19,060 bases of DNA from Promethearchaeota archaeon. GTDB taxonomy: Archaea; Asgardarchaeota; Lokiarchaeia; Sigyniarchaeales; SOKP01. Under the pieces are notes generated by a model. That model had not been told where the DNA came from and made no database searches. It worked only from the letters and a program-made list of their open reading frames with translations. The position numbers and the translations under genes were made by a program. This document shows, piece after piece, positions 2,564 to 18,936 of this stretch. Location of the stretch: the NCBI GenBank assembly GCA_016930515.1, contig JAFGGO010000072.1, forward strand, positions 1-19,060, in the 5' to 3' direction. Positions within the stretch are counted from its first letter, which is position 1. Each line of letters begins with the position of its first letter.

Positions 2564-5494
2564 TTACATCACGCTAATATTTTGTGCTAATTTTTTATGT
2601 TGTCCCTCAATAATGTCAAGAAAAGCCTCCACGCGAGTTTCGAATCCCGCATGGGCTGTATGAGAATCGATTTCAAGGTAGCAAAACGTCGATCCTTCGA
2701 GCTCTTGGCGAAAATGGTGGTACATGATGCTATCAGGACCACAGGAAAAGCACGAAATCAGGCAAATGTATAAGTTTGGATCGTCTTGCACATGATAAAT
2801 GGCGTTTTCAATTTTTTGTGTAAAAGTCCACACATTTCTTTCGTGAACATTTTTAGCTACTTTTTGTGGAAGCAAGTCAACGGGAATTGCGTGATAACCA
2901 CGGCTTACAATCTTGCGAGGAAGTGCGAGATTTACCTCCGTAGGATAAATGACATAAGGTCTCCCGCCGATAACTACGGAAGGTTCCCCTTCGATTTCCT
3001 TGATTTTTATGGCTCCTAAGGTGTAATATTCCTCAATAAATTGCCGATAATGTTCTAATGCCGTTTTAGCAGCGTGTTCACCCTTTCTGGGATCAATACC
3101 CACGTTTTCTGCGATTTTAATGAGCTCGTCCATCGTAGTTTCGGAGCTTTCTTCTGAGAGACTAATATGAGGCGATAATATCTTTGTTGAGTGATCATCA
3201 AGGGCGGCTCGCACGATATCTGGGATGCCTGCCGTAGATGGACAAGTATACCCGTGAAGATAACCTGATGGAATATCGAATTCTATCACATAAGGTAAAA
3301 AGATATAATTCACATTTTTTTGTATTAGATCAATGACAGCACTGTATAGAAGTTCGCAAGGGTAACATATTGATCCCATTGATTTTATAGATGCACCTTT
3401 TATAGAATCCGATAGTACCACATTAAAACCAAGCTCGTTAATGAAGCGAGTATAAAAGGGAAATAAACTATGAGATGTAAGGGCCATTGGAATTCCTATT
3501 GTAGGTAATGGCTCATTTTTGTTTTGAGGACCATACTTTTCGTATATTAATTTGTTGCGCCATTCAATAAGATTATTACCTTCATTTATCTTCTTATTTT
3601 TACGCAATAATCTATATTTTGAACAATATCCCCCGAAAGGATAATTTTTACCCCTTATTGTCATGTTTTGGATCTCACAGAGATTATCACAAGCGTTGCA
3701 TCGGAAAGTGTTTTTAACGCTTATCACTCCCTCAAGGAGTTCGTTTAACTTAAAATCACGTTCTGAGGTATCACCATCGCGTAAGAGATCCAAGGTCATT
3801 AAAGCAGTTCCAACGGCTCCCATGAGTTCTGGATGTGGGGGTACGATTACTTTTCTTTGAGAACACGATGCCATTGCCAAACCAACTGCTTTATTTAGGG
3901 CAACTCCTCCAAGGAAGAGGAGATTTTCACCAATATGGCGGGGTCCTATAATTCGAGAAATGTAATTATCTGCGATGGAATATACTAAACCCGCAACAAC
4001 GTCTTCTTGTTTGGCACCTTGTTGAAGAGCGTTTCGTAAATCCGTGTTTATAAAAGCTGCACATCGTTCTCCAAACGCAATGGGTTTATTGCTATGAAGT
4101 GCGATGCTACTGATGTTTTCAACGGCAATTCCCATATCGACAGAAGCAGATTCCTCGAGAAAACTTCCCGTACCAGCAGAGCATCCTTCGTTCATGGCGT
4201 AATCAATAGGAACACCTTTAAGAAAAGATATGAATTTCGAGTCCTGTCCACCAATTTCAAATACGGTATCCACATCCGGTACTTCTTCTGTGGCGGCTCG
4301 TGCGTGAGCAAGAATTTCGTTAAAAATTAAACAATTTTCCAAGTAGACGGATACCATTTCTCGGGCCGAACCAGTTGCGCTACATTGAACAATCTCTATG
4401 GAACGATCTCCTATTTGTTCCATCAAGCTTTGGAGGCACTTTTTCGTTGCCGAAATGGGGTTTCCGAGCGTGCGCAAGTATATTCTCGCCCCAATAGATT
4501 GATCTATTATATTTAGTAATACTGCTTTAGTCGTGGTTGATCCTGCGTCAATTCCCAGTATATACTTTCCTCCTTCTTCTAATGCAATATCCTGTTCTGA
4601 ATTTACTCGATAATCAATTAGCGATTCGAGATTCTTAAGAGGATCGTGCGTTTCAAATTCTATTTTTTTTGGAAGAAACCAATTATTTATGGGCAAGACT
4701 TCTCCATCTGTATCTGAAGCGATTAATGCTGCACCAAACGCCTCTAAAAACGCACTTTCTGGAAGAAGTTTAATATCAGAATTGGGAAGAAAAGATCTCA
4801 AATCCTCAATAAACACCTGATTCAATCCCACTGCCCCAGCAATCACGATTGATTTAGTTGGCCAATCTGCCGTGAGAACCATTTCGCTGACTTTTCTCGC
4901 TAAATCGTGAATTAAGGTTTTTGCTATATCTTGGGGTAAGCATTCTCCCTTGTTAAGTTTATGAGTTGCGTCTGATTTACAATGAACCGAACAACGCGTT
5001 GCGAGTTTCGTGAATGTTCCTTTCTTGCTTTCTTCTATTCCTTGATCAAGCGTTAATCCCATTCTCTGGAGTTGTTGAACAATGAACTCTCCTGTTCCTG
5101 CGGCACATTTCGTAGTGGATATGATGTTTTTTATAACACCATTTTTTATGGGAAAAACGCTGAATGTTTCTCCACCAAGTGAGAGTAACATGTCCGGCTT
5201 GAGATCGTAATATACAAGCGCTTTTTCCAAGCATTCTGCTTCTGAAAAATATGGAAGATTGAAAAAGCTTCTTGTTGCGTGTCCAGTTATAACTAATTTT
5301 GAATTTTCGTTAACTTTATATTTTTCAAATATTTTTTCTATCTTTTCTTTTGGATGCCCCTCGTGTCTTAGGACTTCGCTAAAGATCTTTCCGTCTCTCG
5401 TTTTTCTTACCCATTTGACAGAAACGGTACCTATTTCCAAGCCTTCGAAATATAAGGGATGAATTTCTTCCTTGTTAGCAAGTTTTTGATTCAT
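2564..5494 (-). CDS. Acyl-CoA dehydratase activase: two BadF/BadG/BcrA/BcrD ASKHA ATPase domains plus DUF2229-like domain
   Basis: 976 aa; GLEIGTVSVK and GIDAGSTTTK phosphate-1 loops, LGGETF and EIGGQDSK, KCAAGTG/RCSVHCKSD and NEGCSAGTG/RCAAF Fe-S Cys motifs, CNACDNLC, ICYPC, YTCP, SCFSCGPD, EIDSHTAHAGFETRVEAF. Confidence 0.92.
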   Translation of the reverse strand: MNQKLANKEEIHPLYFEGLEIGTVSVKWVRKTRDGKIFSEVLRHEGHPKEKIEKIFEKYKVNENSKLVITGHATRSFFNLPYFSEAECLEKALVYYDLKPDMLLSLGGETFSVFPIKNGVIKNIISTTKCAAGTGEFIVQQLQRMGLTLDQGIEESKKGTFTKLATRCSVHCKSDATHKLNKGECLPQDIAKTLIHDLARKVSEMVLTADWPTKSIVIAGAVGLNQVFIEDLRSFLPNSDIKLLPESAFLEAFGAALIASDTDGEVLPINNWFLPKKIEFETHDPLKNLESLIDYRVNSEQDIALEEGGKYILGIDAGSTTTKAVLLNIIDQSIGARIYLRTLGNPISATKKCLQSLMEQIGDRSIEIVQCSATGSAREMVSVYLENCLIFNEILAHARAATEEVPDVDTVFEIGGQDSKFISFLKGVPIDYAMNEGCSAGTGSFLEESASVDMGIAVENISSIALHSNKPIAFGERCAAFINTDLRNALQQGAKQEDVVAGLVYSIADNYISRIIGPRHIGENLLFLGGVALNKAVGLAMASCSQRKVIVPPHPELMGAVGTALMTLDLLRDGDTSERDFKLNELLEGVISVKNTFRCNACDNLCEIQNMTIRGKNYPFGGYCSKYRLLRKNKKINEGNNLIEWRNKLIYEKYGPQNKNEPLPTIGIPMALTSHSLFPFYTRFINELGFNVVLSDSIKGASIKSMGSICYPCELLYSAVIDLIQKNVNYIFLPYVIEFDIPSGYLHGYTCPSTAGIPDIVRAALDDHSTKILSPHISLSEESSETTMDELIKIAENVGIDPRKGEHAAKTALEHYRQFIEEYYTLGAIKIKEIEGEPSVVIGGRPYVIYPTEVNLALPRKIVSRGYHAIPVDLLPQKVAKNVHERNVWTFTQKIENAIYHVQDDPNLYICLISCFSCGPDSIMYHHFRQELEGSTFCYLEIDSHTAHAGFETRVEAFLDIIEGQHKKLAQNISVM

Positions 5495-9875: not shown

Positions 9876-11147
9876 TTACACCCTTCTTTGGTAATTAACG
9901 CCCTTTTTTAATCCGGAAATTGAGAACAATTCGTCTCCTTCGATGAAATCTTCTATCATGTTTTTCTCAAGGTGGTGATAAAAAATTGGTTCGAGCAAAT
10001 TCTCTCCTTCATTCAACATTCGAGTTAAGTTCTTATGAAACTGAGAGTCTTTAAGAACTGTGTTTGTAAACGGGGTATTCTTGGCCAAACGATAATAAAA
10101 TCCAATTCCTACTTGATTTGGACGATGTTTTTTGAAAAACTCTAACCCCTTTTTTGTGGAATCGAGCGATTCTCCGGGATATCCCGTCATTAGGTCAATG
10201 GATACTTGGATCTTGTATTTTGAGCAGAGATTAATGACATTTTCTAAATCTTGATAGGAGTAGCTGTTGAGAGATTGGATGCGTTCGTCAGTATCAACGG
10301 ACAGAGTAATCATGTAGGCGTTTGTTTCGCTTAACAAGTAATATAGCTTTTCGCTGTAAGGCTTTGGTTTCATGTAAAGCGCCCATTTTAAACTAATTCC
10401 GCTCTCTTTTAATGTCTCGCAAAAGCGCATTGAAAAAGACAAGTCGTTGTTGAATTCGCTATCGCACAAATGAAAGTGATTGCATCCTCTCTTTACTAAA
10501 ATTCGTAATTCATCAACAACATTCTTAATGTTTCTAAACCATATTTTTTTATTCGCCTCAACGCAATAGGGACATTGATTTGTACAACCAAAATGCGTTT
10601 GAAACCCAAAAACACCATCTTCCTTTAAATAACGAGATAATTCTATGTCCTTTCCTCTACGATGAATTAAATTAGGATCTATACCTTGTTTCCATCCGTC
10701 AATTAAATCTTCTGTGAGAGCGTTTTCTTGCCACGAATGTAAAAAGCGAGGAAATGCTATTTCTCCTGGTCCCACGATACCGTAATCTGCGCCCAAGTAC
10801 TCTAATATTTCTCTTGGCATTGATGAGAAGCCAGCACCACCTAATACGACAGGCAAATCAAATTGTTTCGCAAATTGGACTAATTTTCTAATTTTGGGCA
10901 AGTAGAAATCGCAATTGAAATAAATTCCAAAATCAACATTGCGAATCGTGAATCCAATAATGTCGTAATTTCCATTTTGTAGTTCAGTTTTAATTTCGAT
11001 CTCTGGAGTGCTGGAAAAACATAAATCCAAGATTTTTACTCGATGTTCGTGTTTCTCTATGGCTGTTTTTAAATATTCCAAGCCAATAGGGGGGACTGGC
11101 GGAACTTTCATTTGGTTTGGATTTATTAATAGGATTTTAAGCTCCAT
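9876..11147 (-). CDS. Cobalamin-binding radical SAM protein (class B; TsrM-like / lipid-biosynthesis B12-rSAM-like)
   Basis: N-terminal B12-binding domain (LLINPNQ..PPIGLEYL, GFTIRNVD, VVLGGAGFS, YGIVGPGE), CxxxCxxC at C188/C192/C195, HLCDSEFN, GYPGES. Confidence 0.92.
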   Translation of the reverse strand: MELKILLINPNQMKVPPVPPIGLEYLKTAIEKHEHRVKILDLCFSSTPEIEIKTELQNGNYDIIGFTIRNVDFGIYFNCDFYLPKIRKLVQFAKQFDLPVVLGGAGFSSMPREILEYLGADYGIVGPGEIAFPRFLHSWQENALTEDLIDGWKQGIDPNLIHRRGKDIELSRYLKEDGVFGFQTHFGCTNQCPYCVEANKKIWFRNIKNVVDELRILVKRGCNHFHLCDSEFNNDLSFSMRFCETLKESGISLKWALYMKPKPYSEKLYYLLSETNAYMITLSVDTDERIQSLNSYSYQDLENVINLCSKYKIQVSIDLMTGYPGESLDSTKKGLEFFKKHRPNQVGIGFYYRLAKNTPFTNTVLKDSQFHKNLTRMLNEGENLLEPIFYHHLEKNMIEDFIEGDELFSISGLKKGVNYQRRV

Positions 11148-11873: not shown

Positions 11874-13400
11874 TTAATTTTTACCGAAAGCTTTTAATTT
11901 ATGTCCCAAATCTTCTTTAAAATTGAATTTTTGAGCGTGAAAATCGTAAATCAAATTATCAATTTGTTCTTGTTTTACCGAAAGGTCGTATTGAAAATTT
12001 TTTTTTTTTTCTGAGATGATCTGCTTGACTAATTTCTCGACCTCAGATTGCGTGTCGATATCTGGATGAACAAAAGGCAATGCGTGAATGGTTGTAATCT
12101 GAATGCTGCTAGTATTATTTAGAATTCCCTTTGCTAGATAATTATACAAAGAACTATTAAGTAATCCTAAAAAATATTCTATAGATAAGGAAGGATTTAT
12201 TAACACAAATCCAATGGCCTTGTTTGAATCCCAATAACATCCTTTTGGCATGTGTCTTGCGGCTAATTTAGAACTCACGCCACTAATCACGATGCCCTCT
12301 TCTTCAAAAGGAACGCTTTTTGGAATGTCATAGATTTTTTGAGACTCTGAATCCCAATCTAAAGCCTCCCAAATGGGCCTATAATATTGATCCGCTCCAC
12401 CGCGCTTCAAGTACGGTTTCCATTGCTCCGAATCAAGAGCGCTCCTCGGTAGAATTTTATAACGCTGATTTTTTTCAGAAATGGTTTCGTTTCGTTTTTG
12501 GAATAGTTCCGCCAATGGTGTTCCTTCAATTGCAGCAATATATTTCCTATTATCGTGCGTGTGCATCCCAATATACCCCTTTAAGTAATGCTTCAATTTA
12601 GGAGCACTTTGGAACAATTTTATGATTTCCAGTTCCATATCCGAAAAAAACAGGTTAAATGGTAATAATTCGTACATTTCTTGCTTATAAGTATGGATAA
12701 CGCTAGGATCGTCGTATTGATTTTCGTTCTCGACTCTTGGAACGACTTGCATTATGTTTTCTTTTCTATTGAGTATGTTTTCTTTCCCTGAACATTTCGT
12801 TAATATTATTATCGCAGGACTGGTGCTCACGTTTTGACTTGAAAACAAACCTTTAGGTGCGAGTAATATTTCGTTAATTTTACAATTATCAAGGATAAAT
12901 CTCCTTAACTTGGCGTGAGTTTTTAATGTGAGAAAAGAATCGCTGGTTATGAATCCAAGCCTCCCCCCTTCCTTTAAGCGCCAAATTCCATTAACAAGAA
13001 ACATGGAGTAGGTCTCATGGGCGTTGATCTTCCCGTAAATCTTTTTTAACAATTTTTTATTTTCTCGGATATAAGAACTCGACTTATTAAGATATGGAGG
13101 ATTTCCAACGATAATATCAAATTCGTTTTTTAAATCTTCGTGAAAAGACAGGAGCGTGTCCTGAGATTGAAAAGAGACCCCTAATTGAAGAATATCGCTT
13201 TCGTGGCGATTATCCAAATCAAAAGTAAAGATTTTTTCGTTATCCACTCCTGCTTTAAGTAAGGATTTCACGAATACGCCTGGTCCAACGCAAGGATCGC
13301 ATATTTTTTCTATCTTTTTCATGTTTATTAATTTAGATACGATATAGTCTGCTGTTTTTTGAGGAGTTAAAATAACACCTAATTCCTTTTTAAGGTTCAT
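11874..13400 (-). CDS. N6-adenine DNA methyltransferase, gamma class (M.TaqI/Eco57I-like) with C-terminal specificity domain; no adjacent endonuclease
   Basis: Motif X (TP), motif I DPCVGPGVF, motif IV FDIIVGNPPY, LKEGGRLGFITSDSFL, then TaqI_C-like YFLGLLNSSL...LPF. Confidence 0.9.
   Translation of the reverse strand: MNLKKELGVILTPQKTADYIVSKLINMKKIEKICDPCVGPGVFVKSLLKAGVDNEKIFTFDLDNRHESDILQLGVSFQSQDTLLSFHEDLKNEFDIIVGNPPYLNKSSSYIRENKKLLKKIYGKINAHETYSMFLVNGIWRLKEGGRLGFITSDSFLTLKTHAKLRRFILDNCKINEILLAPKGLFSSQNVSTSPAIIILTKCSGKENILNRKENIMQVVPRVENENQYDDPSVIHTYKQEMYELLPFNLFFSDMELEIIKLFQSAPKLKHYLKGYIGMHTHDNRKYIAAIEGTPLAELFQKRNETISEKNQRYKILPRSALDSEQWKPYLKRGGADQYYRPIWEALDWDSESQKIYDIPKSVPFEEEGIVISGVSSKLAARHMPKGCYWDSNKAIGFVLINPSLSIEYFLGLLNSSLYNYLAKGILNNTSSIQITTIHALPFVHPDIDTQSEVEKLVKQIISEKKKNFQYDLSVKQEQIDNLIYDFHAQKFNFKEDLGHKLKAFGKN
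11998..12010. repeat. 13-nt homopolymer (T13 plus strand, A13 coding strand) inside the methyltransferase gene
   Basis: Coding strand reads GAA AAA AAA AAA AAT (E-K-K-K-N); longest homopolymer I found in the window. Confidence 0.9.
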
Positions 13401-13504: not shown

Positions 13505-14782
13505 TTGAGCTTGATAAAAGTATTAATCGCCGATGATTCTGCGTTCTTGAGAAAGTCAATTGCGTCGATTTTATCAGAGGAAAAATCGATAGAAATTGTC
13601 GATATGGCCATCAATGGAAGAGAAGCGATCGAAAAGGTTAATAAGCATCACCCGGATGTTCTCATATTAGATCTTTTAATGCCCGAAATGGACGGGTTAG
13701 AGGCTTTCAAACATATTATGAAAGATTATCCCGTACCAACCATAATACTTTCTGCTGTTAATCCACAAAATATGGATACTTCCGTTCAGGCCTTACTAAT
13801 GGGGGCTTTTGATTATGTTATTAAACCAGGAGGAATTGGTGCGAAAGATTTACCGAGATTTAGAGAAGAACTACGATCCAAAGTGTTGTTGGCATCCCAA
13901 TCGCAAATAACAAGAATTTACGCAAGAAAAAAAGAGCGAACCAGAAAAACTACCTTGCGACAGCAATTAATTGACGACACTTTTGAGTTTGGAGTGTATC
14001 TACGGGATCTCAAGCCGATCGAAGAAGAAGAAAGAAAGATAATTGAAGATGCTTCTGAAAAATCAAAGTTAAAACTCTGGAAGAAGGAAAAAGAAAAAGA
14101 TAAGTTAGAACCGAAATTAACAGAGGAGATTTCTCCTCCTTTAAAAAAGGAAGCAAGAATGCAAAAAATTCCGTCAATTTCGTCCAGTGTTGAAAATTTA
14201 CAAATATCAAGGCTTACAAATCCAATTATTGTTATAGGAGCAAGCGTTGGTGGTCCAAAAACAGTAAGGACCATTCTTAAAGATATGCCTCGCAGTCTCC
14301 CGGTCCCAATTTTAGTCGTTCAACATTTAAGCGAATTTTTTTTAGAATCTTTTGCCATGTCTCTTGACGCTGCATGTAAGATTAAAGTAAAGGTAGCCCA
14401 GAACGGGGAACAAATTCTTCCTGGTATAGCATATATCTCGCCAGGAGGTAAGCACATGGAAATTACTATGAAAGGAAACGAACCAATAATCAAAATATTT
14501 GAAGGAGAACCAGTTAATTTTTGCATTCCTTCTGTAGATGTTTTATTCTTTTCTGCTGCGAAATTCTTTAAGAGAAATACAATAGGGATACTTTTAACGG
14601 GAATGGGAAAAGACGGCGTAGATGGATTGGGAGTGATCAAAAACAATGGTGGAATTACAATAGCAGAATCGGAAGAAACATCGGTTCTTTATGGGATGCC
14701 CAAATTCGCAAAAGAACAAGGTGTCGCAAAACTCGTTCTCCCTAACTATAAAATAAGCGAATATATTCAGAGTCTATTGTAA
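13505..14782 (+). CDS. cheB: Chemotaxis response regulator protein-glutamate methylesterase CheB
   Basis: Receiver domain (IADDS, LILDLLMPEMDG, ILSA, GAFDYVIKP) plus methylesterase with Ser-His-Asp triad (GASVGGP, VVQH, LLTGMGKDG), PSVDVLF, YGMP; about 100-aa charged linker; TTG start. Confidence 0.95.
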   Translation: MSLIKVLIADDSAFLRKSIASILSEEKSIEIVDMAINGREAIEKVNKHHPDVLILDLLMPEMDGLEAFKHIMKDYPVPTIILSAVNPQNMDTSVQALLMGAFDYVIKPGGIGAKDLPRFREELRSKVLLASQSQITRIYARKKERTRKTTLRQQLIDDTFEFGVYLRDLKPIEEEERKIIEDASEKSKLKLWKKEKEKDKLEPKLTEEISPPLKKEARMQKIPSISSSVENLQISRLTNPIIVIGASVGGPKTVRTILKDMPRSLPVPILVVQHLSEFFLESFAMSLDAACKIKVKVAQNGEQILPGIAYISPGGKHMEITMKGNEPIIKIFEGEPVNFCIPSVDVLFFSAAKFFKRNTIGILLTGMGKDGVDGLGVIKNNGGITIAESEETSVLYGMPKFAKEQGVAKLVLPNYKISEYIQSLL

Positions 14783-14987
14783 ACTTCTGTGCTATTTTTT
14801 ATATTTTTAGTTCATCATTTTAAAAGACAAAAATAATTTCTTGATGGAATGTATAATAAAAGGCCTTTAAGAAAACGATTTAAGGGAATAATAATTTAAT
14901 AAGCCATACTCTTGAAATAAAAACTCACATTATAGGTATTTTTTTACCGTTTGGAGTTGAATCGTACTTTTAATTGGTAGAAATATT

Positions 14988-15761
14988 ATGGACGGTATTT
15001 ATACACTTAATATTTTTGTTGGTGACCTGTTTTTAACATTATTTTTATATTTGTATATTTTAGCAACTATAATTGCTCCCTTTTACTTGAAAAAAAAAGG
15101 GAAGATTTCTAAATTTGCGGCAAGAAAAACCGTACATTTATTAACTGGGCTAGTTGTGCTTTTTGCTCCCTTCCTCTCTAGACCTTACGGGCGATTCTGG
15201 GCTGTATTAGTTGCTTTTTCGTTAACAATAATTGTGTATAACACCGAAAAAAATTCAAAAATTAAAATACTTGGCGAATTATACCAAGCAATTGGTGAAG
15301 AGGCAGAAGATAAATTAAATCGTTCCTATCTTCAAGGTCCATTTCATTATTGCGTTTCTATTACTTTTTTAATTACTTTATTTGTTATCTTAGGTTTTTG
15401 GGAGGATCAAATATATCTTCCCATCGCTGGAATCCTAATTATGATTATTAGCGACACGCTTGCTAGTGTGGTTGGAAAAAAATATGGAAAAATTAAAATA
15501 AATCTTTCGTGGACGGGTACCACGAGATCTCTAGAAGGATCGTTAGTGTTTATGGCCACGGCCTTTTTATTGGCCTATTTTTCCTTTTATGTTTTTGGTT
15601 TCTTATATAGGGCGCTTTCAATAGAAGTTGTCTTCTTATATTCGATTGTAACTGCCATCGTAAGCACTGTAATAGAGTTAGTCTCTCCAAGCACGTGGGA
15701 TGATTTAACCGTTCCGATCATTTCCACGCTAGTAATGTGGATTGCATTATTTTTTATTTAA
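14988..15761 (+). CDS. CTP-dependent polyprenol/diacylglycerol kinase family membrane protein (SEC59 / phytol kinase VTE5 / Dgk1-like, COG0170)
   Basis: Multi-TM 257 aa; RKTVH, GPFHY, ISDTLASVVGKKYG, RSLEGS, ELVS...DDLTVP match the dolichol/phytol kinase motifs RKxxH, D..A..vG..fG, KSxEGS, E....DN..vP. Confidence 0.85.
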   Translation: MDGIYTLNIFVGDLFLTLFLYLYILATIIAPFYLKKKGKISKFAARKTVHLLTGLVVLFAPFLSRPYGRFWAVLVAFSLTIIVYNTEKNSKIKILGELYQAIGEEAEDKLNRSYLQGPFHYCVSITFLITLFVILGFWEDQIYLPIAGILIMIISDTLASVVGKKYGKIKINLSWTGTTRSLEGSLVFMATAFLLAYFSFYVFGFLYRALSIEVVFLYSIVTAIVSTVIELVSPSTWDDLTVPIISTLVMWIALFFI

Positions 15762-15809
15762 TATCATGTTTTTTTAATTTATTATTTGAAGAAAATAATT
15801 TGAATTGAG

Positions 15810-17207
15810 ATGTCTGGAACAAGCGAAGAATATGATGTAGTTGTTGTTGGCGCTGGTACTGGTGGTGCTATTGCTGCTCGATTTGCTGCCGAAAAAGGCT
15901 TGAAAGTTTGCTTGATCGATAGCAAGGAAAGATCCCAAATTGGTAATAAGATTTGCGGTGACGGGGTTGGCTCTGAAATCTTTGATTTTCTTAAAATCAA
16001 TCATCCAAAAGGAGAAGAACTTGCTTGTAATATTACAGGTGTTAAAATGTATTCTCCCAACTTACAAAAGTGCCTTACGATGATTGATCCAAAGCAAGCG
16101 GGATATGTTGTGAATCGGATTGAATTTGGACAAAGATTAGTTAACGAGGCATTAGATGCGGGAGTAAAAGATTTTTTTGACAACACGATGGCTTTAAAAT
16201 TGTTATATAAGGGAGATATGGTTACAGGTTTAAAAGTAAAATCTAAGCATGAGGGTGTTTCAGAACTTCGATCGAAAATAGTAGTTGACGCAAGCGGTTA
16301 TTACTCGCCATTAAGAAATCAAGTAAAGCATCCAATGGTCGAAAAAGATTTATCTAAGGCTGATTCTATCCTGTGCTTTAGAGAAATCGTTAATTTCCCT
16401 AAAAAGGATCAATTAGTTAAAGATCCCGAATATATAACGATAGTTTTGGATCAAAAACGCGCTCCAGGGGGATATGTTTGGTATTTTCCAAAAAACGAAT
16501 ATTCTGTTAATATAGGTCTTGGAGTGTTTATGGATTACAAGGGAAAGGTTAAAGATTATTATCAAAAATATGTTTTTAACGAATACATAAAATCTCCTAA
16601 TTACGAAATAGAATCTTCGGGTGGAGGTGTTGTTTCCGTGCGAAGACCTTTATGGTCGTGCGCAGAAAACGGCCTTATGCTAGTGGGGGATTCTGGATAT
16701 CAGGTTAATCCATTACACGGAGGAGGAATTGATCCCTCAATGAGGGCGGGATTGTATGCCGCAAACGCTGCGATTGACGCAATTGAGGTGGGCGATTACT
16801 CGTTGAATAAGTTATGGGCATTTAATACGGATATAATGACTACCTTCGGAGCTCAATTCGCATCCCTTGATTTGTTAAGGATGGTCTTACAGGTACTCAC
16901 AAACGAGGAGCTGAACTTTGGGCTTAGCAAGGACCTGTTAACTGAAGATGAAATTCTCAATATTGCTGAAACCGGTCATATAAACCTTTCAATAATGAAT
17001 ATGGTAACCAAGGCCATCAAGGGCTTCTCAAACACGAAATTGCTATTAGATTTAAATTACCTGCGAATTCGGATGAATGAAATTGCCAAGATCTACAGGA
17101 AATTTCCTTCGGATATCAATAAATTCGCAGATTGGAAAAATAAAGTAGTTCAAGTTTACAATAACCTTAATAAGATGGTCATTCATCCTAGAAATCATTC
17201 AAGATGA
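15810..17207 (+). CDS. Geranylgeranyl reductase (digeranylgeranylglycerophospholipid reductase family)
   Basis: YDVVVVGAGTGG FAD motif, KICGDG, VDASG, PGGYVWYFP (PxxYxWxFP GGR signature), VGDSGYQVNPLHGGGI; adjacent to GGGPS/DGGGPS. Confidence 0.92.
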   Translation: MSGTSEEYDVVVVGAGTGGAIAARFAAEKGLKVCLIDSKERSQIGNKICGDGVGSEIFDFLKINHPKGEELACNITGVKMYSPNLQKCLTMIDPKQAGYVVNRIEFGQRLVNEALDAGVKDFFDNTMALKLLYKGDMVTGLKVKSKHEGVSELRSKIVVDASGYYSPLRNQVKHPMVEKDLSKADSILCFREIVNFPKKDQLVKDPEYITIVLDQKRAPGGYVWYFPKNEYSVNIGLGVFMDYKGKVKDYYQKYVFNEYIKSPNYEIESSGGGVVSVRRPLWSCAENGLMLVGDSGYQVNPLHGGGIDPSMRAGLYAANAAIDAIEVGDYSLNKLWAFNTDIMTTFGAQFASLDLLRMVLQVLTNEELNFGLSKDLLTEDEILNIAETGHINLSIMNMVTKAIKGFSNTKLLLDLNYLRIRMNEIAKIYRKFPSDINKFADWKNKVVQVYNNLNKMVIHPRNHSR

Positions 17208-17217
17208 TAGAATACAA

Positions 17218-18045
17218 GTGATAAAAGTGGTAAACATTTTGATGGATCAATCCGAAAATAACGGAACTTATAAGCACTTGATTGAAAAAATTAATCTCGA
17301 AGGAACGCTCCATTTTTCCCTTATGGATCCTGATCCAGTTAGACAAAGACCATCAAAGGCTGCGAAGATGGCAAAATTATGCGAAAAGGCGGGAACGGAT
17401 GCTTTTTTAATTGGCGGGAGCACGGTTTTTGACCAGACCTTTGTTGATAAAACCATCGAAGCCATAAAACAAGAAGTAGAAATTCCTGTAATCATCTTTC
17501 CTGGTGGTGTTGGCAATGTATCATCCAAAGCCGACGCGATTTTTTTTATGTCTCTATTGAATTCTTCGAATCCACATTTTATTATTGGTCAACAAGCGTT
17601 AGCATCTTATACGATAAAATTAGCGCAGTTAGAATACATCTCAATGGCATATCTAATAATCGAACCGGGTGCAGCTGCAGGCTGGATTGGAGACGCTAAA
17701 TTATTTCCTCGAGCAAGACCTAAATTAACAGCTGCTTATGCCCTTGCCGCTGAAATGTTTGGATTCAAGATGGTTTATTTAGAAGCTGGTTCTGGTGGAG
17801 AAAGCATACCACCTGAAACCATCAAGCTTTGTTCTTCATTGTTATCTATTCCACTAATTGCTGGTGGCGGTGTTCAAACCAAGGAAGACGCACGGAAATT
17901 CGTCAAAGCAGGTGCCGACATCATTGTTATGGGCAGTTACATCGAGAAAACTGTATTAAAGGACAACGGTGCATCTTTAAAAGAAATAATCGACGAAATT
18001 AAAGATGCGGGCAAGAATCACTCTAAAGATTTCAAATTAAAGTAA
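17218..18045 (+). CDS. Geranylgeranylglyceryl phosphate synthase (GGGPS, group II)
   Basis: LHFSLMDPD, GTDAFLIGGS, PVIIFPG, ADAIFFMSLLNS, AYLIIEPG, VYLEAGSG, GGGV, GADIIVMGS. Start GTG 17218 or ATG 17242. Confidence 0.96.
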   Translation: MIKVVNILMDQSENNGTYKHLIEKINLEGTLHFSLMDPDPVRQRPSKAAKMAKLCEKAGTDAFLIGGSTVFDQTFVDKTIEAIKQEVEIPVIIFPGGVGNVSSKADAIFFMSLLNSSNPHFIIGQQALASYTIKLAQLEYISMAYLIIEPGAAAGWIGDAKLFPRARPKLTAAYALAAEMFGFKMVYLEAGSGGESIPPETIKLCSSLLSIPLIAGGGVQTKEDARKFVKAGADIIVMGSYIEKTVLKDNGASLKEIIDEIKDAGKNHSKDFKLK

Positions 18046-18048
18046 ATA

Positions 18049-18936
18049 GTGTACGCCGAAATGAAAGTAAAAGACATTGTTGAAATCATGCGCCCTATCA
18101 ACGATGTTATGGGTTCACTAACCGTCATCATTGGCGTTTTAAATACGAGAATGGGCATTCCAGATACGATCGTATGGATAAACTTGATTATGGGTGTGTT
18201 GACTTATATATTTATATCTGGAGCGTCAATGATAATAAACGATATATACGACCATCAAATCGATCAAATCAACAGACCAGAGCGCCCGATTCCTTCTGGA
18301 CGAATTTCTCTAAAGCAAGCAAAAATATTATTTGTTGTAATGCTCGTTATTGGAATAACTTTTTCCTTCTTAAATAGCTTGATTATTGGCTTGATACCTA
18401 TAAATGTGATCGTTGCGGCATTTTTTGGATTTATTGGTTGGTTATACGCAAAATGGGGGAAAAAAAGTGGCTTTCCTGGAAACATTCTAGTGGGCATATC
18501 TTTTTCGATAGGGCTGGTTTATGGTGCCATATTAAATGGTTACAACATTCCTTTATATATCTTATACTTTTTCCTAACATCGTTTTTCCTACTTATCGCA
18601 CGCGAAATCGTTAAAGGATGCGAGGATATCGAAGGAGATAAGATAGAAGGTGTGAAAACATTGGCATTAACTAAAGGATTAAAATACGCTCTGGTGATTT
18701 CAGTAATTTGTCAGATACTGGCAATAGTGTTCTTTATTTTACCAATTTTTACCCTTATCATCAATCCGATGCTTTTCTTGCTGACTATGAGCTTTGGTTT
18801 GGTGGTAGTATGTATTGCTCTTGTACTATCTTTGCTTTCCAAGTTAGAAAAGAAAGAATTCAGTCGCATTAGTTTATTTCTAAAAATAGGAGCCTTTTTA
18901 GGCTTACTGTCTTTTGTATGTGCTAGCATAGGTTAA
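18049..18936 (+). CDS. Digeranylgeranylglyceryl phosphate synthase (DGGGPS, UbiA prenyltransferase family)
   Basis: MRPIN, NDIYDHQIDQINRPERPIPSG (NDxxDxxxD), REIVKGCEDIEGD second acidic motif, multiple TM helices; directly follows GGGPS. Start GTG 18049 or ATG 18061. Confidence 0.92.
   Translation: MYAEMKVKDIVEIMRPINDVMGSLTVIIGVLNTRMGIPDTIVWINLIMGVLTYIFISGASMIINDIYDHQIDQINRPERPIPSGRISLKQAKILFVVMLVIGITFSFLNSLIIGLIPINVIVAAFFGFIGWLYAKWGKKSGFPGNILVGISFSIGLVYGAILNGYNIPLYILYFFLTSFFLLIAREIVKGCEDIEGDKIEGVKTLALTKGLKYALVISVICQILAIVFFILPIFTLIINPMLFLLTMSFGLVVVCIALVLSLLSKLEKKEFSRISLFLKIGAFLGLLSFVCASIG

Follow-up and report, generated by a model that had tools for sequence, protein, structure and literature searches.

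The stretch of DNA analysed here (the window) is the entire 19,060-bp contig C124 of an Asgard metagenome-assembled genome (MAG) of the Lokiarchaeia type, labelled G000 (4.0 Mb in 190 contigs, 94% completeness, 5.3% contamination). It carries four co-oriented genes, the first for a kinase-like membrane protein that we call P0001 and the other three for the ether-lipid enzymes GGR, GGGPS and DGGGPS. The coordinates of the open reading frames and the model matches confirmed the arrangement reported in a first-pass annotation of the sequence, with intergenic gaps of 48, 10 and 3 bp. The block and its spacers are composed as follows.

14783 to 14987, plus strand: A/T-rich spacer of 205 bp between the CheB stop codon (14782) and the kinase ATG (14988), presumed promoter region
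14988 to 15761, plus strand: kinase-like gene for P0001, a 257-amino-acid polytopic membrane protein, putatively of the SEC59/DGK1/VTE5 type and presumably CTP-dependent (motifs, model, fold, relatives)
15762 to 15809, plus strand: kinase-GGR spacer of 48 bp, a possible terminator and internal promoter judging from its sequence
15810 to 17207, plus strand: GGR, 465 amino acids, digeranylgeranylglycerophospholipid reductase type (NF041080 E 1.3e-124, TIGR02032 E 3.5e-59, PF22578 GGR_cat E 6e-18)
17218 to 18045, plus strand: GGGPS, PcrB family, 275 amino acids (PF01884 E 1e-52, TIGR01769 E 1e-70, NF003198 above cut-off)
18049 to 18936, plus strand: DGGGPS, UbiA prenyltransferase, 295 amino acids (PF01040 E 2e-36, NF009523 E 2.5e-57, NF009521 E 1.4e-48)

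Curated cut-offs were passed by all three lipid genes: those of NF003198, TIGR01769 and TIGR01768 by GGGPS, those of TIGR02032 and Pfam GGR_cat by GGR, and that of Pfam UbiA by DGGGPS, whose best NCBIfam models, NF009523 and NF009521, fall below their equivalog cut-offs. The gaps of 10 and 3 bp assume GTG starts; if translation began instead at the ATGs that come next (17242 and 18061), they would widen to 34 and 15 bp. GGGPS and DGGGPS share a reading frame, with nothing but TAA-ATA between them ahead of the GTG at 18049; because the same gap measures 13–22 bp in relatives, the shared frame looks incidental.

P0001 very probably belongs to the SEC59/DGK1/VTE5 (polyprenol kinase, COG0170) branch of the CTP-transferase superfamily, in agreement with the lipid-alcohol kinase identity proposed for it in the first-pass annotation. 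This assignment is based on motifs, a structure model, the missing cytidylyltransferase signature and the names that sources give to its relatives, rather than on a curated model: searched against Pfam and NCBIfam, P0001 gave no match at E <= 1e-3. Only four of its 20 orthologues reach PF01148 (CTP_transf_1) at E < 0.1, and the link to that family is transitive, through a protein (P0190) among the relatives found by the family profile at about 1e-33, which itself passes PF01148 with 28.3 bits. Source annotations of close and distant relatives read 'diacylglycerol/polyprenol kinase family', 'SEC59/DGK1/VTE5 family', 'dolichol kinase' and 'phytol kinase'.

A profile search of 1.84 billion representative proteins returned 3,413 relatives of P0001 at E <= 1e-10, and we aligned the 20 orthologues together with a second set of 41 distant relatives, sampled from the 3,413 so as to cover their spread. 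Seven residues (R46, H50, D156, G163, G184, E230 and D238) are invariant across both sets, and K47, G167 and P243 are nearly so. These residues fall into four motifs, R-K-x-x-H, D-x-x-A-x-x-x-G-x-x-x-G, (R/K)-(S/T)-x-E-G and E...D-(N/D)-x-x-x-P, of which R-K-x-x-H has been described as a 'charged clamp' in the CTP pocket of PfPolK, a CTP-dependent farnesol/geranylgeraniol kinase (10.1101/2023.07.17.549440). The clamp of P0001 matches R29/K30/H33 of PfPolK, and CTP would be the likely phosphate donor. At the same time, the CarS signature GDLxGSFxKRR...DQLDF, seen in CarS proteins of the same family of archaea, is absent from P0001.

The AlphaFold2 model of P0001 is confident (pLDDT 89.8, pTM 0.86) and all-helical, with about ten helices. 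The top four structural matches of this model in Foldseek were entries 4Q2E/4Q2G of the CDP-diacylglycerol synthase TmCdsA, with probabilities of 0.92–0.99 (0.99 for 4Q2E, the best) but with E 0.018 and TM 0.34. A VIA alignment to 4q2e gave Z 8.4 over 183 residues, a value that sits among helical-bundle noise; designed helical bundles dominated the wide VIA search, in which 4q2e was the only membrane-enzyme match covering most of the model.

We scored the distribution of the kinase and DUF92 across 150 Asgard genomes, and that of EgsA and the lipid genes in a phylum sample, family by family, using f1 for the family of the window, f2 for its sister family (f1 and f2 together making up the order), other f-numbers for other Asgard families, and g3 and g4 for two other genera within f1. 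In a coordinate comparison, 16 of the 19 f1 genomes with the kinase gene have it on the strand of GGGPS and some 2.2 kb from it, and the block is colinear over its whole 3.9 kb in 5/5 genomes of the same genus (67–73% nucleotide identity), which bears out the linkage to GGR-GGGPS-DGGGPS that had been put forward for checking. In public MAGs the four genes recur, but the sequence upstream of them differs. The arrangement is more than chance: the gene order is kept in at least five genera at just 50–57% kinase identity and with different flanks.

The wider synteny across Asgard genomes that was also put forward for checking holds within f1 and not elsewhere, linkage being confined to this one family. 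In the genomes compared by coordinates outside f1 (f6, f7, f8, f9, f12, f13, f15 and f19), the kinase and GGGPS were never adjacent. Orthologues were also fetched from f2, f6, f7, f8, f9, f12, f13, f15, f18, f19 and f26, and the roughly 6 kb around them contained no GGR, GGGPS, DGGGPS, CarS or EgsA. Within f1, genus g3 gave no kinase match and has SecY preceding GGR, with GGR-GGGPS-DGGGPS kept, and in genus g4 the kinase is located elsewhere and GGR is divergent from GGGPS-DGGGPS. The stable core is GGR-GGGPS-DGGGPS, which the kinase joined once, in one family. In the closest same-genus MAG (G159, contig C156; locus L044, about 300–1100, against window 14960–15830), the kinase gene carries a frame-breaking deletion of 58 bp that removes the D156...G163...G167 codons, the rest of the gene being about 80% identical; this copy has either decayed recently into a pseudogene or arisen from faulty assembly. 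Being absent in g3, unlinked in g4 and disrupted in G159, the kinase appears to be an accessory gene.

In f7, f12, f13 and f26 a small HD-domain protein adjoins the kinase orthologue (L028:6828–7394, L029:7854–8510, L030:8505–9065, and L040:3837–4568 or 4565–5377). MoCF_biosynth and TatD genes are also near it in f7 and f26, and a 505-amino-acid open reading frame at locus L037, which clusters with these neighbours, may fuse MoCF_biosynth and HD domains. We considered these neighbours (HD-domain, MoCF_biosynth, TatD and helix-turn-helix proteins) as a functional lead and rejected them, none being a lipid or glycosylation gene.

The spacer between the kinase and GGR is always the longest of the block's spacers in related loci. 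In the window it contains a run of seven Ts at 15769–15775, confirming the T-rich tract noted there before, and a TATA-like TTTATTAT at 15778–15785, about 28 nt upstream of the GGR ATG. A run of at least five Ts follows the kinase stop codon in 13 of 19 related spacers, these loci not all being independent, and is missing from three related spacers of 7–26 bp. Partial transcriptional uncoupling of the kinase from the lipid genes at the T-run is therefore plausible from these recurrences, but T-runs in DNA so A/T-rich fairly likely also arise by chance. Co-expression of the kinase with the lipid genes is presumed.

The first-pass annotation had further suggested that the kinase could bypass the need for glycerol-1-phosphate (G1P), with reference to reports that the G1P dehydrogenase (G1PDH) EgsA is missing from some Lokiarchaeal genomes. 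In part, this premise stood: in our phylum sample, canonical EgsA was not found in f1, where 2/25 genomes (G040 and G065) gave weak matches at about 1e-33, nor in f2 (0/2), f9, f15 or f27, and it was nearly absent from f17. G000 has no EgsA, its two Fe-ADH_2 matches being ordinary alcohol dehydrogenases; an AraM-like G1PDH was also considered for G000 and dropped, since the weak proteins of G040 and G065 gave no tblastn match there. At the same time, divergent G1PDH homologues have been described in Lokiarchaeota (Manoharan et al. 2019, PMC6737245), so that the premise of a bypass is itself contested. The only EgsA of f7 is divergent (E about 1e-55 to 1e-63), and f2 lacks a GGGPS of the window's type (0/2), though CarS and the kinase are present there.

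The bypass itself found no support in the distribution of the kinase. Orthologues abound in EgsA-positive families (f7 23/26, f12 17/19, f13 3/3 and f19 6/6), and genus g3 lacks both the kinase and EgsA, yet keeps GGR-GGGPS-DGGGPS. In the EgsA-poor families besides f1, the orthologues of f2, f9 and f15 show no linkage over about 6 kb, and the search for kinase orthologues in f17 and f27 gave none; the disrupted copy in G159 also speaks against a bypass. We rejected a correlation of the kinase with egsA loss as uninformative or negative, the linkage having arisen in a single family.

The wider family of P0001 points to prenol chemistry. In 10 of the 41 sampled relatives, its domain is N-terminal to a C-terminal DUF92/TIGR00297 domain (the VTE6 phytyl-phosphate-kinase family), and such DUF92 fusions were found in Asgard Hodarchaeales. 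Among the 150 Asgard genomes, those of f6, f7, f8, f9, f12, f13, f15, f18, f19 and f26 have both the kinase and DUF92, f5 has the two fused, and f3, f16, f17, f20 and f21 have neither. This co-occurrence is the signature of a two-step salvage from prenol to prenyl phosphate to prenyl diphosphate, of the kind found in plants and cyanobacteria; both pairing and fusion had been recognised computationally before (PMC5898192; PMC9782597). One further relative of the 41 (P0258, 487 amino acids) carries an archaeal isopentenyl-phosphate kinase (IPK) at residues 2–226 and the kinase domain at residues 253–486, joining two isoprenoid phosphorylation steps in a single protein.

The order to which the window belongs departs from this pattern, being the one lineage in the sample that has the kinase and lacks DUF92, which was not found in G000 either. 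In addition, G000 encodes five 'long' kinase paralogues of 354–384 amino acids, all extended at the N-terminus by a membrane region of about 120 amino acids:

C92, 29717 to 30838: long kinase paralogue
C101, 6268 to 7365: long kinase paralogue
C127, 2476 to 3612: long kinase paralogue
C132, 2349 to 3476: long kinase paralogue
C168, 98066 to 99133: long kinase paralogue

Full-length long paralogues occur only in this order, with 2–5 matches per genome in f1 (mostly 3–5) and 1–3 in f2. A fusion with PlsY was considered for the paralogues of G000 and rejected: the four that were scanned have no PlsY domain, and the protein on C132 was inspected by eye. In the tree, the short kinases of the order form a clade (SH-aLRT 96) on an unremarkable stem of 0.57. 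In the alignment, G-D-G and D-N, common to all the other sequences, are replaced by S/A-D-T and D-D in each of the nine members of this clade; the substitutions adjoin both invariant aspartates, and N239 is D in the clade. G000 also encodes a polyprenyl-diphosphate synthase and one true IPK (on C178), on contigs other than the window, so that de novo isoprenoid synthesis is available to it. Among the papers searched, we found none linking Asgard archaea with a dolichol or prenol kinase.

With these observations in hand, we tentatively favour, among several readings and at less than even confidence, P0001 as a CTP-dependent C20 prenol kinase for salvage. In this scheme, P0001 would take a free C20 isoprenoid alcohol, such as geranylgeraniol, phytol or an intermediate of partial reduction, and convert it to the monophosphate at the expense of CTP; a second phosphorylation, by a kinase with no assigned gene, would allow the chain to re-enter GGGPS and DGGGPS, and GGR would then adjust chain saturation. 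Such a salvage entry would be accessory to an intact de novo route and not a substitute for G1P synthesis. The C20 length of the substrate is presumed, and our guesses for the second kinase are the single IPK or one of the long paralogues. The earlier proposal that the kinase feeds salvaged lipid alcohols into the pathway thus survives as the most economical reading, with the DUF92 fusions and co-occurrence favouring the step from prenol to prenyl phosphate, but it has to be separated from the bypass of G1P. Several observations weigh against prenol salvage. Its main weakness is the second phosphorylation, for which no dedicated prenyl-phosphate kinase is evident: DUF92 was over its cut-off in 0/61 f1 and 0/2 f2 genomes, as well as in 0/27 genomes of the order in the phylum sample, which leaves the prenyl monophosphate without an identified route to the diphosphate needed by GGGPS and DGGGPS, and a second IPK-type kinase in G000 was considered and rejected, the extra IPK-like matches being ProB and LysZ/ArgB. 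The substitutions beside both aspartates may signal a changed substrate, and the T-run past the kinase stop may split the kinase transcript from the lipid genes. Beyond f1, the orthologue was not found next to lipid genes, its recurrent neighbour being the small HD-domain protein. Furthermore, P0001 passes no curated model, PF01148 coming nearest with E 0.0038 and 17.6 bits where the cut-off is 24, and a family-profile sequence search of the Protein Data Bank gave as its only match a spurious MtrC at E 0.03, with no solved kinase of this branch for comparison.

Taken together, the absence of DUF92 and the aspartate-adjacent substitutions keep alive two alternatives that need a single phosphorylation. 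It is possible, though we are doubtful, that P0001 acts as a kinase of dolichol or long-chain polyprenols and so renews the phosphorylated glycan carrier used in protein glycosylation; its place beside the lipid genes would then reflect only a common isoprenoid theme, or an insertion that arose by chance and became fixed in one family. Close relatives are named dolichol kinase by their sources, and the one conserved context of archaeal DUF92 is uppS, encoding a long-chain polyprenyl synthase (PMC5898192), which hints at long-chain polyprenols for the ancestral kinase-DUF92 pair and counts against C20 salvage as well. A single step fits the lack of DUF92, the lipid-gene linkage is limited to one family and broken in g3 and g4, and the T-run could make the kinase a separate transcript. 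On the other hand, the linkage is kept at 50–57% identity through varying flanks in at least five genera; the five longer paralogues with their N-terminal membrane extensions could do that job; and the gene is absent from genus g3. Moreover, f16 and f21, which lack both the kinase and DUF92, still have another short superfamily member, suggesting that the clade of P0001 is not housekeeping. We consider it unlikely that the enzyme in this order has shifted to a glycerol-ether lipid alcohol, converting (di)geranylgeranylglycerol or archaeol to geranylgeranylglyceryl phosphate, digeranylgeranylglyceryl phosphate or archaetidic acid as a counterpart of Dgk1, so that core lipids would re-enter the pathway just before DGGGPS, CarS or GGR. 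One phosphorylation would again match the lineage-specific loss of DUF92, the gene has moved beside enzymes whose products or substrates are these monophosphates, the clade-specific substitutions flank both invariant aspartates, and Dgk1 is of the same family (by general knowledge and the NCBI family name). However, the clade stem is not unusually long, and all family-invariant residues are retained. In the form of a G1P bypass it is contradicted by g3, and by f17 and f27. The benthic recycling data of Takano from 2010, which reportedly show new glycerol with old isoprenoid chains, also fit salvage at the level of chains rather than of core lipids. We know of no archaeol kinase of any family.

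A last alternative is that P0001 is a non-orthologous CDP-archaeol synthase standing in for a missing CarS, which we regard as highly improbable. It shares the CdsA superfamily fold, and CarS (PF01864) was not found in the G000 assembly, either by Pfam on any contig or by tblastn with same-family CarS. CarS nevertheless occurs throughout the relatives, in 5/5 genomes of the genus, 25/25 of the family and 72/72 high-quality ones of the phylum, which indicates that its lack in G000 is a gap in a 94%-complete assembly, and the CarS/CdsA C-terminal signature is missing from P0001; we have therefore set the replacement aside. The remark in the first-pass annotation that the cluster lacks EgsA, GGPP synthase and CarS accordingly holds for the contig, where family searches of all contigs placed no EgsA, CarS or polyprenyl synthase, but not for CarS as a biological absence. 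The CarS proteins of f1 are divergent, about 260–270 amino acids long and matched in two pieces with an insert, and g4 has two copies. The remaining probability falls to other substrates or to a non-kinase activity.

That benthic archaea recycle isoprenoid lipids is an accepted idea, though with no known enzymes behind it (Takano 2010, as cited in PMC9123169), and P0001 is a concrete, cloneable candidate for the gene behind archaeal geranylgeraniol-kinase activity and sediment lipid recycling. What this analysis adds is a phylum-wide map in which the linkage is confined to one family; the DUF92 loss, paralogue expansion and motif changes in the order; and evidence against both the G1P bypass and CarS replacement. 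It also draws a contrast between two-step salvage, with kinase and DUF92 paired in other lineages, and a possible one-step salvage in this order, where DUF92 is missing, the family is expanded and the active-site surroundings are altered. A shift to glycerol-ether alcohols, if true, would make P0001 the first archaeol kinase and imply direct re-use of scavenged core lipids in sediments. The origin of glycerol-1-phosphate in these archaea is not solved by the finding.

Three other genes noted in the window lie upstream of the block. A B12-binding radical SAM protein is encoded at 9876–11147 on the minus strand (best NCBIfam model TIGR04072, 'lipid biosynthesis B12-binding/radical SAM', E 2e-58, below cut-off), and this gene, 4 kb upstream of the ether-lipid block, could encode a lipid-modifying enzyme. 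The second gene encodes a 508-amino-acid N6-adenine methyltransferase (11874–13400, minus strand) similar to the central portion of BREX PglX (E 2e-41, well under the cut-off), and the third, adjoining it, encodes a full CheB methylesterase/response regulator (13505–14782, plus strand), a chemotaxis component in an Asgard genome.

Comparison with known systems places P0001 among several enzymes that share its fold or its proposed chemistry. With CdsA and CarS it shares the superfamily fold (4Q2E being the best structural match), probable CTP binding and two conserved aspartates, whereas P0001 lacks the cytidylyltransferase C-terminal signature and a canonical CarS coexists in all relatives. 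SEC59/DOLK (archaeal arCOG01881, for example HVO_0053, PMC5898192) belongs to the same superfamily, with the same motifs, and carries out a single CTP-dependent phosphorylation of an isoprenoid alcohol. The eukaryotic enzymes, however, have about double the length and carry an N-terminal membrane extension that the five long paralogues have and P0001 does not, and no glycosylation genes are found near P0001. Yeast Dgk1, a CTP-dependent diacylglycerol kinase of the same family, converts a glycerolipid alcohol to phosphatidate, analogous to turning archaeol into archaetidic acid, the likeness lying solely in the proposed chemistry; we know of no archaeal example of Dgk1.

Also related to P0001 are the two-domain Sec59-like and DUF92 proteins (arCOG02245, for example Mbar_A3310; Makarova, Galperin and Koonin 2015, PMC5898192), whose N-terminal domain belongs to the P0001 clade (profile E about 1e-28 to 1e-37) and which, as seen above, also occur in Hodarchaeales, whereas P0001 is single-domain and its order lacks DUF92. 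Kinase activities towards geranylgeraniol and geranylgeranyl phosphate have been reported in archaeal membranes with no genes assigned (Ohnuma 1996, as cited in PMC9385802); these represent the same chemistry as proposed here, but as activities only, and their link to this family is putative. A further comparison is with the phytol kinase VTE5, the farnesol kinase FOLK and PfPolK. Identity to these is about 10–30% at best, P0001 lacks a curated model match, and it has S-D-T and D-D instead of G-D-G and D-N. The lineage of P0001 has no VTE6/DUF92 partner, and the context is an ether-lipid operon rather than tocopherol or quinone synthesis. At the same time, all are small polytopic membrane proteins of about eight helices with the R-K-x-x-H clamp and two Asp motifs, the DUF92/VTE6 partnership of the wider clade of P0001 resembles the phytol salvage of plants and cyanobacteria, and the predicted product of P0001 would likewise feed UbiA-type or PcrB-type prenyltransferases.

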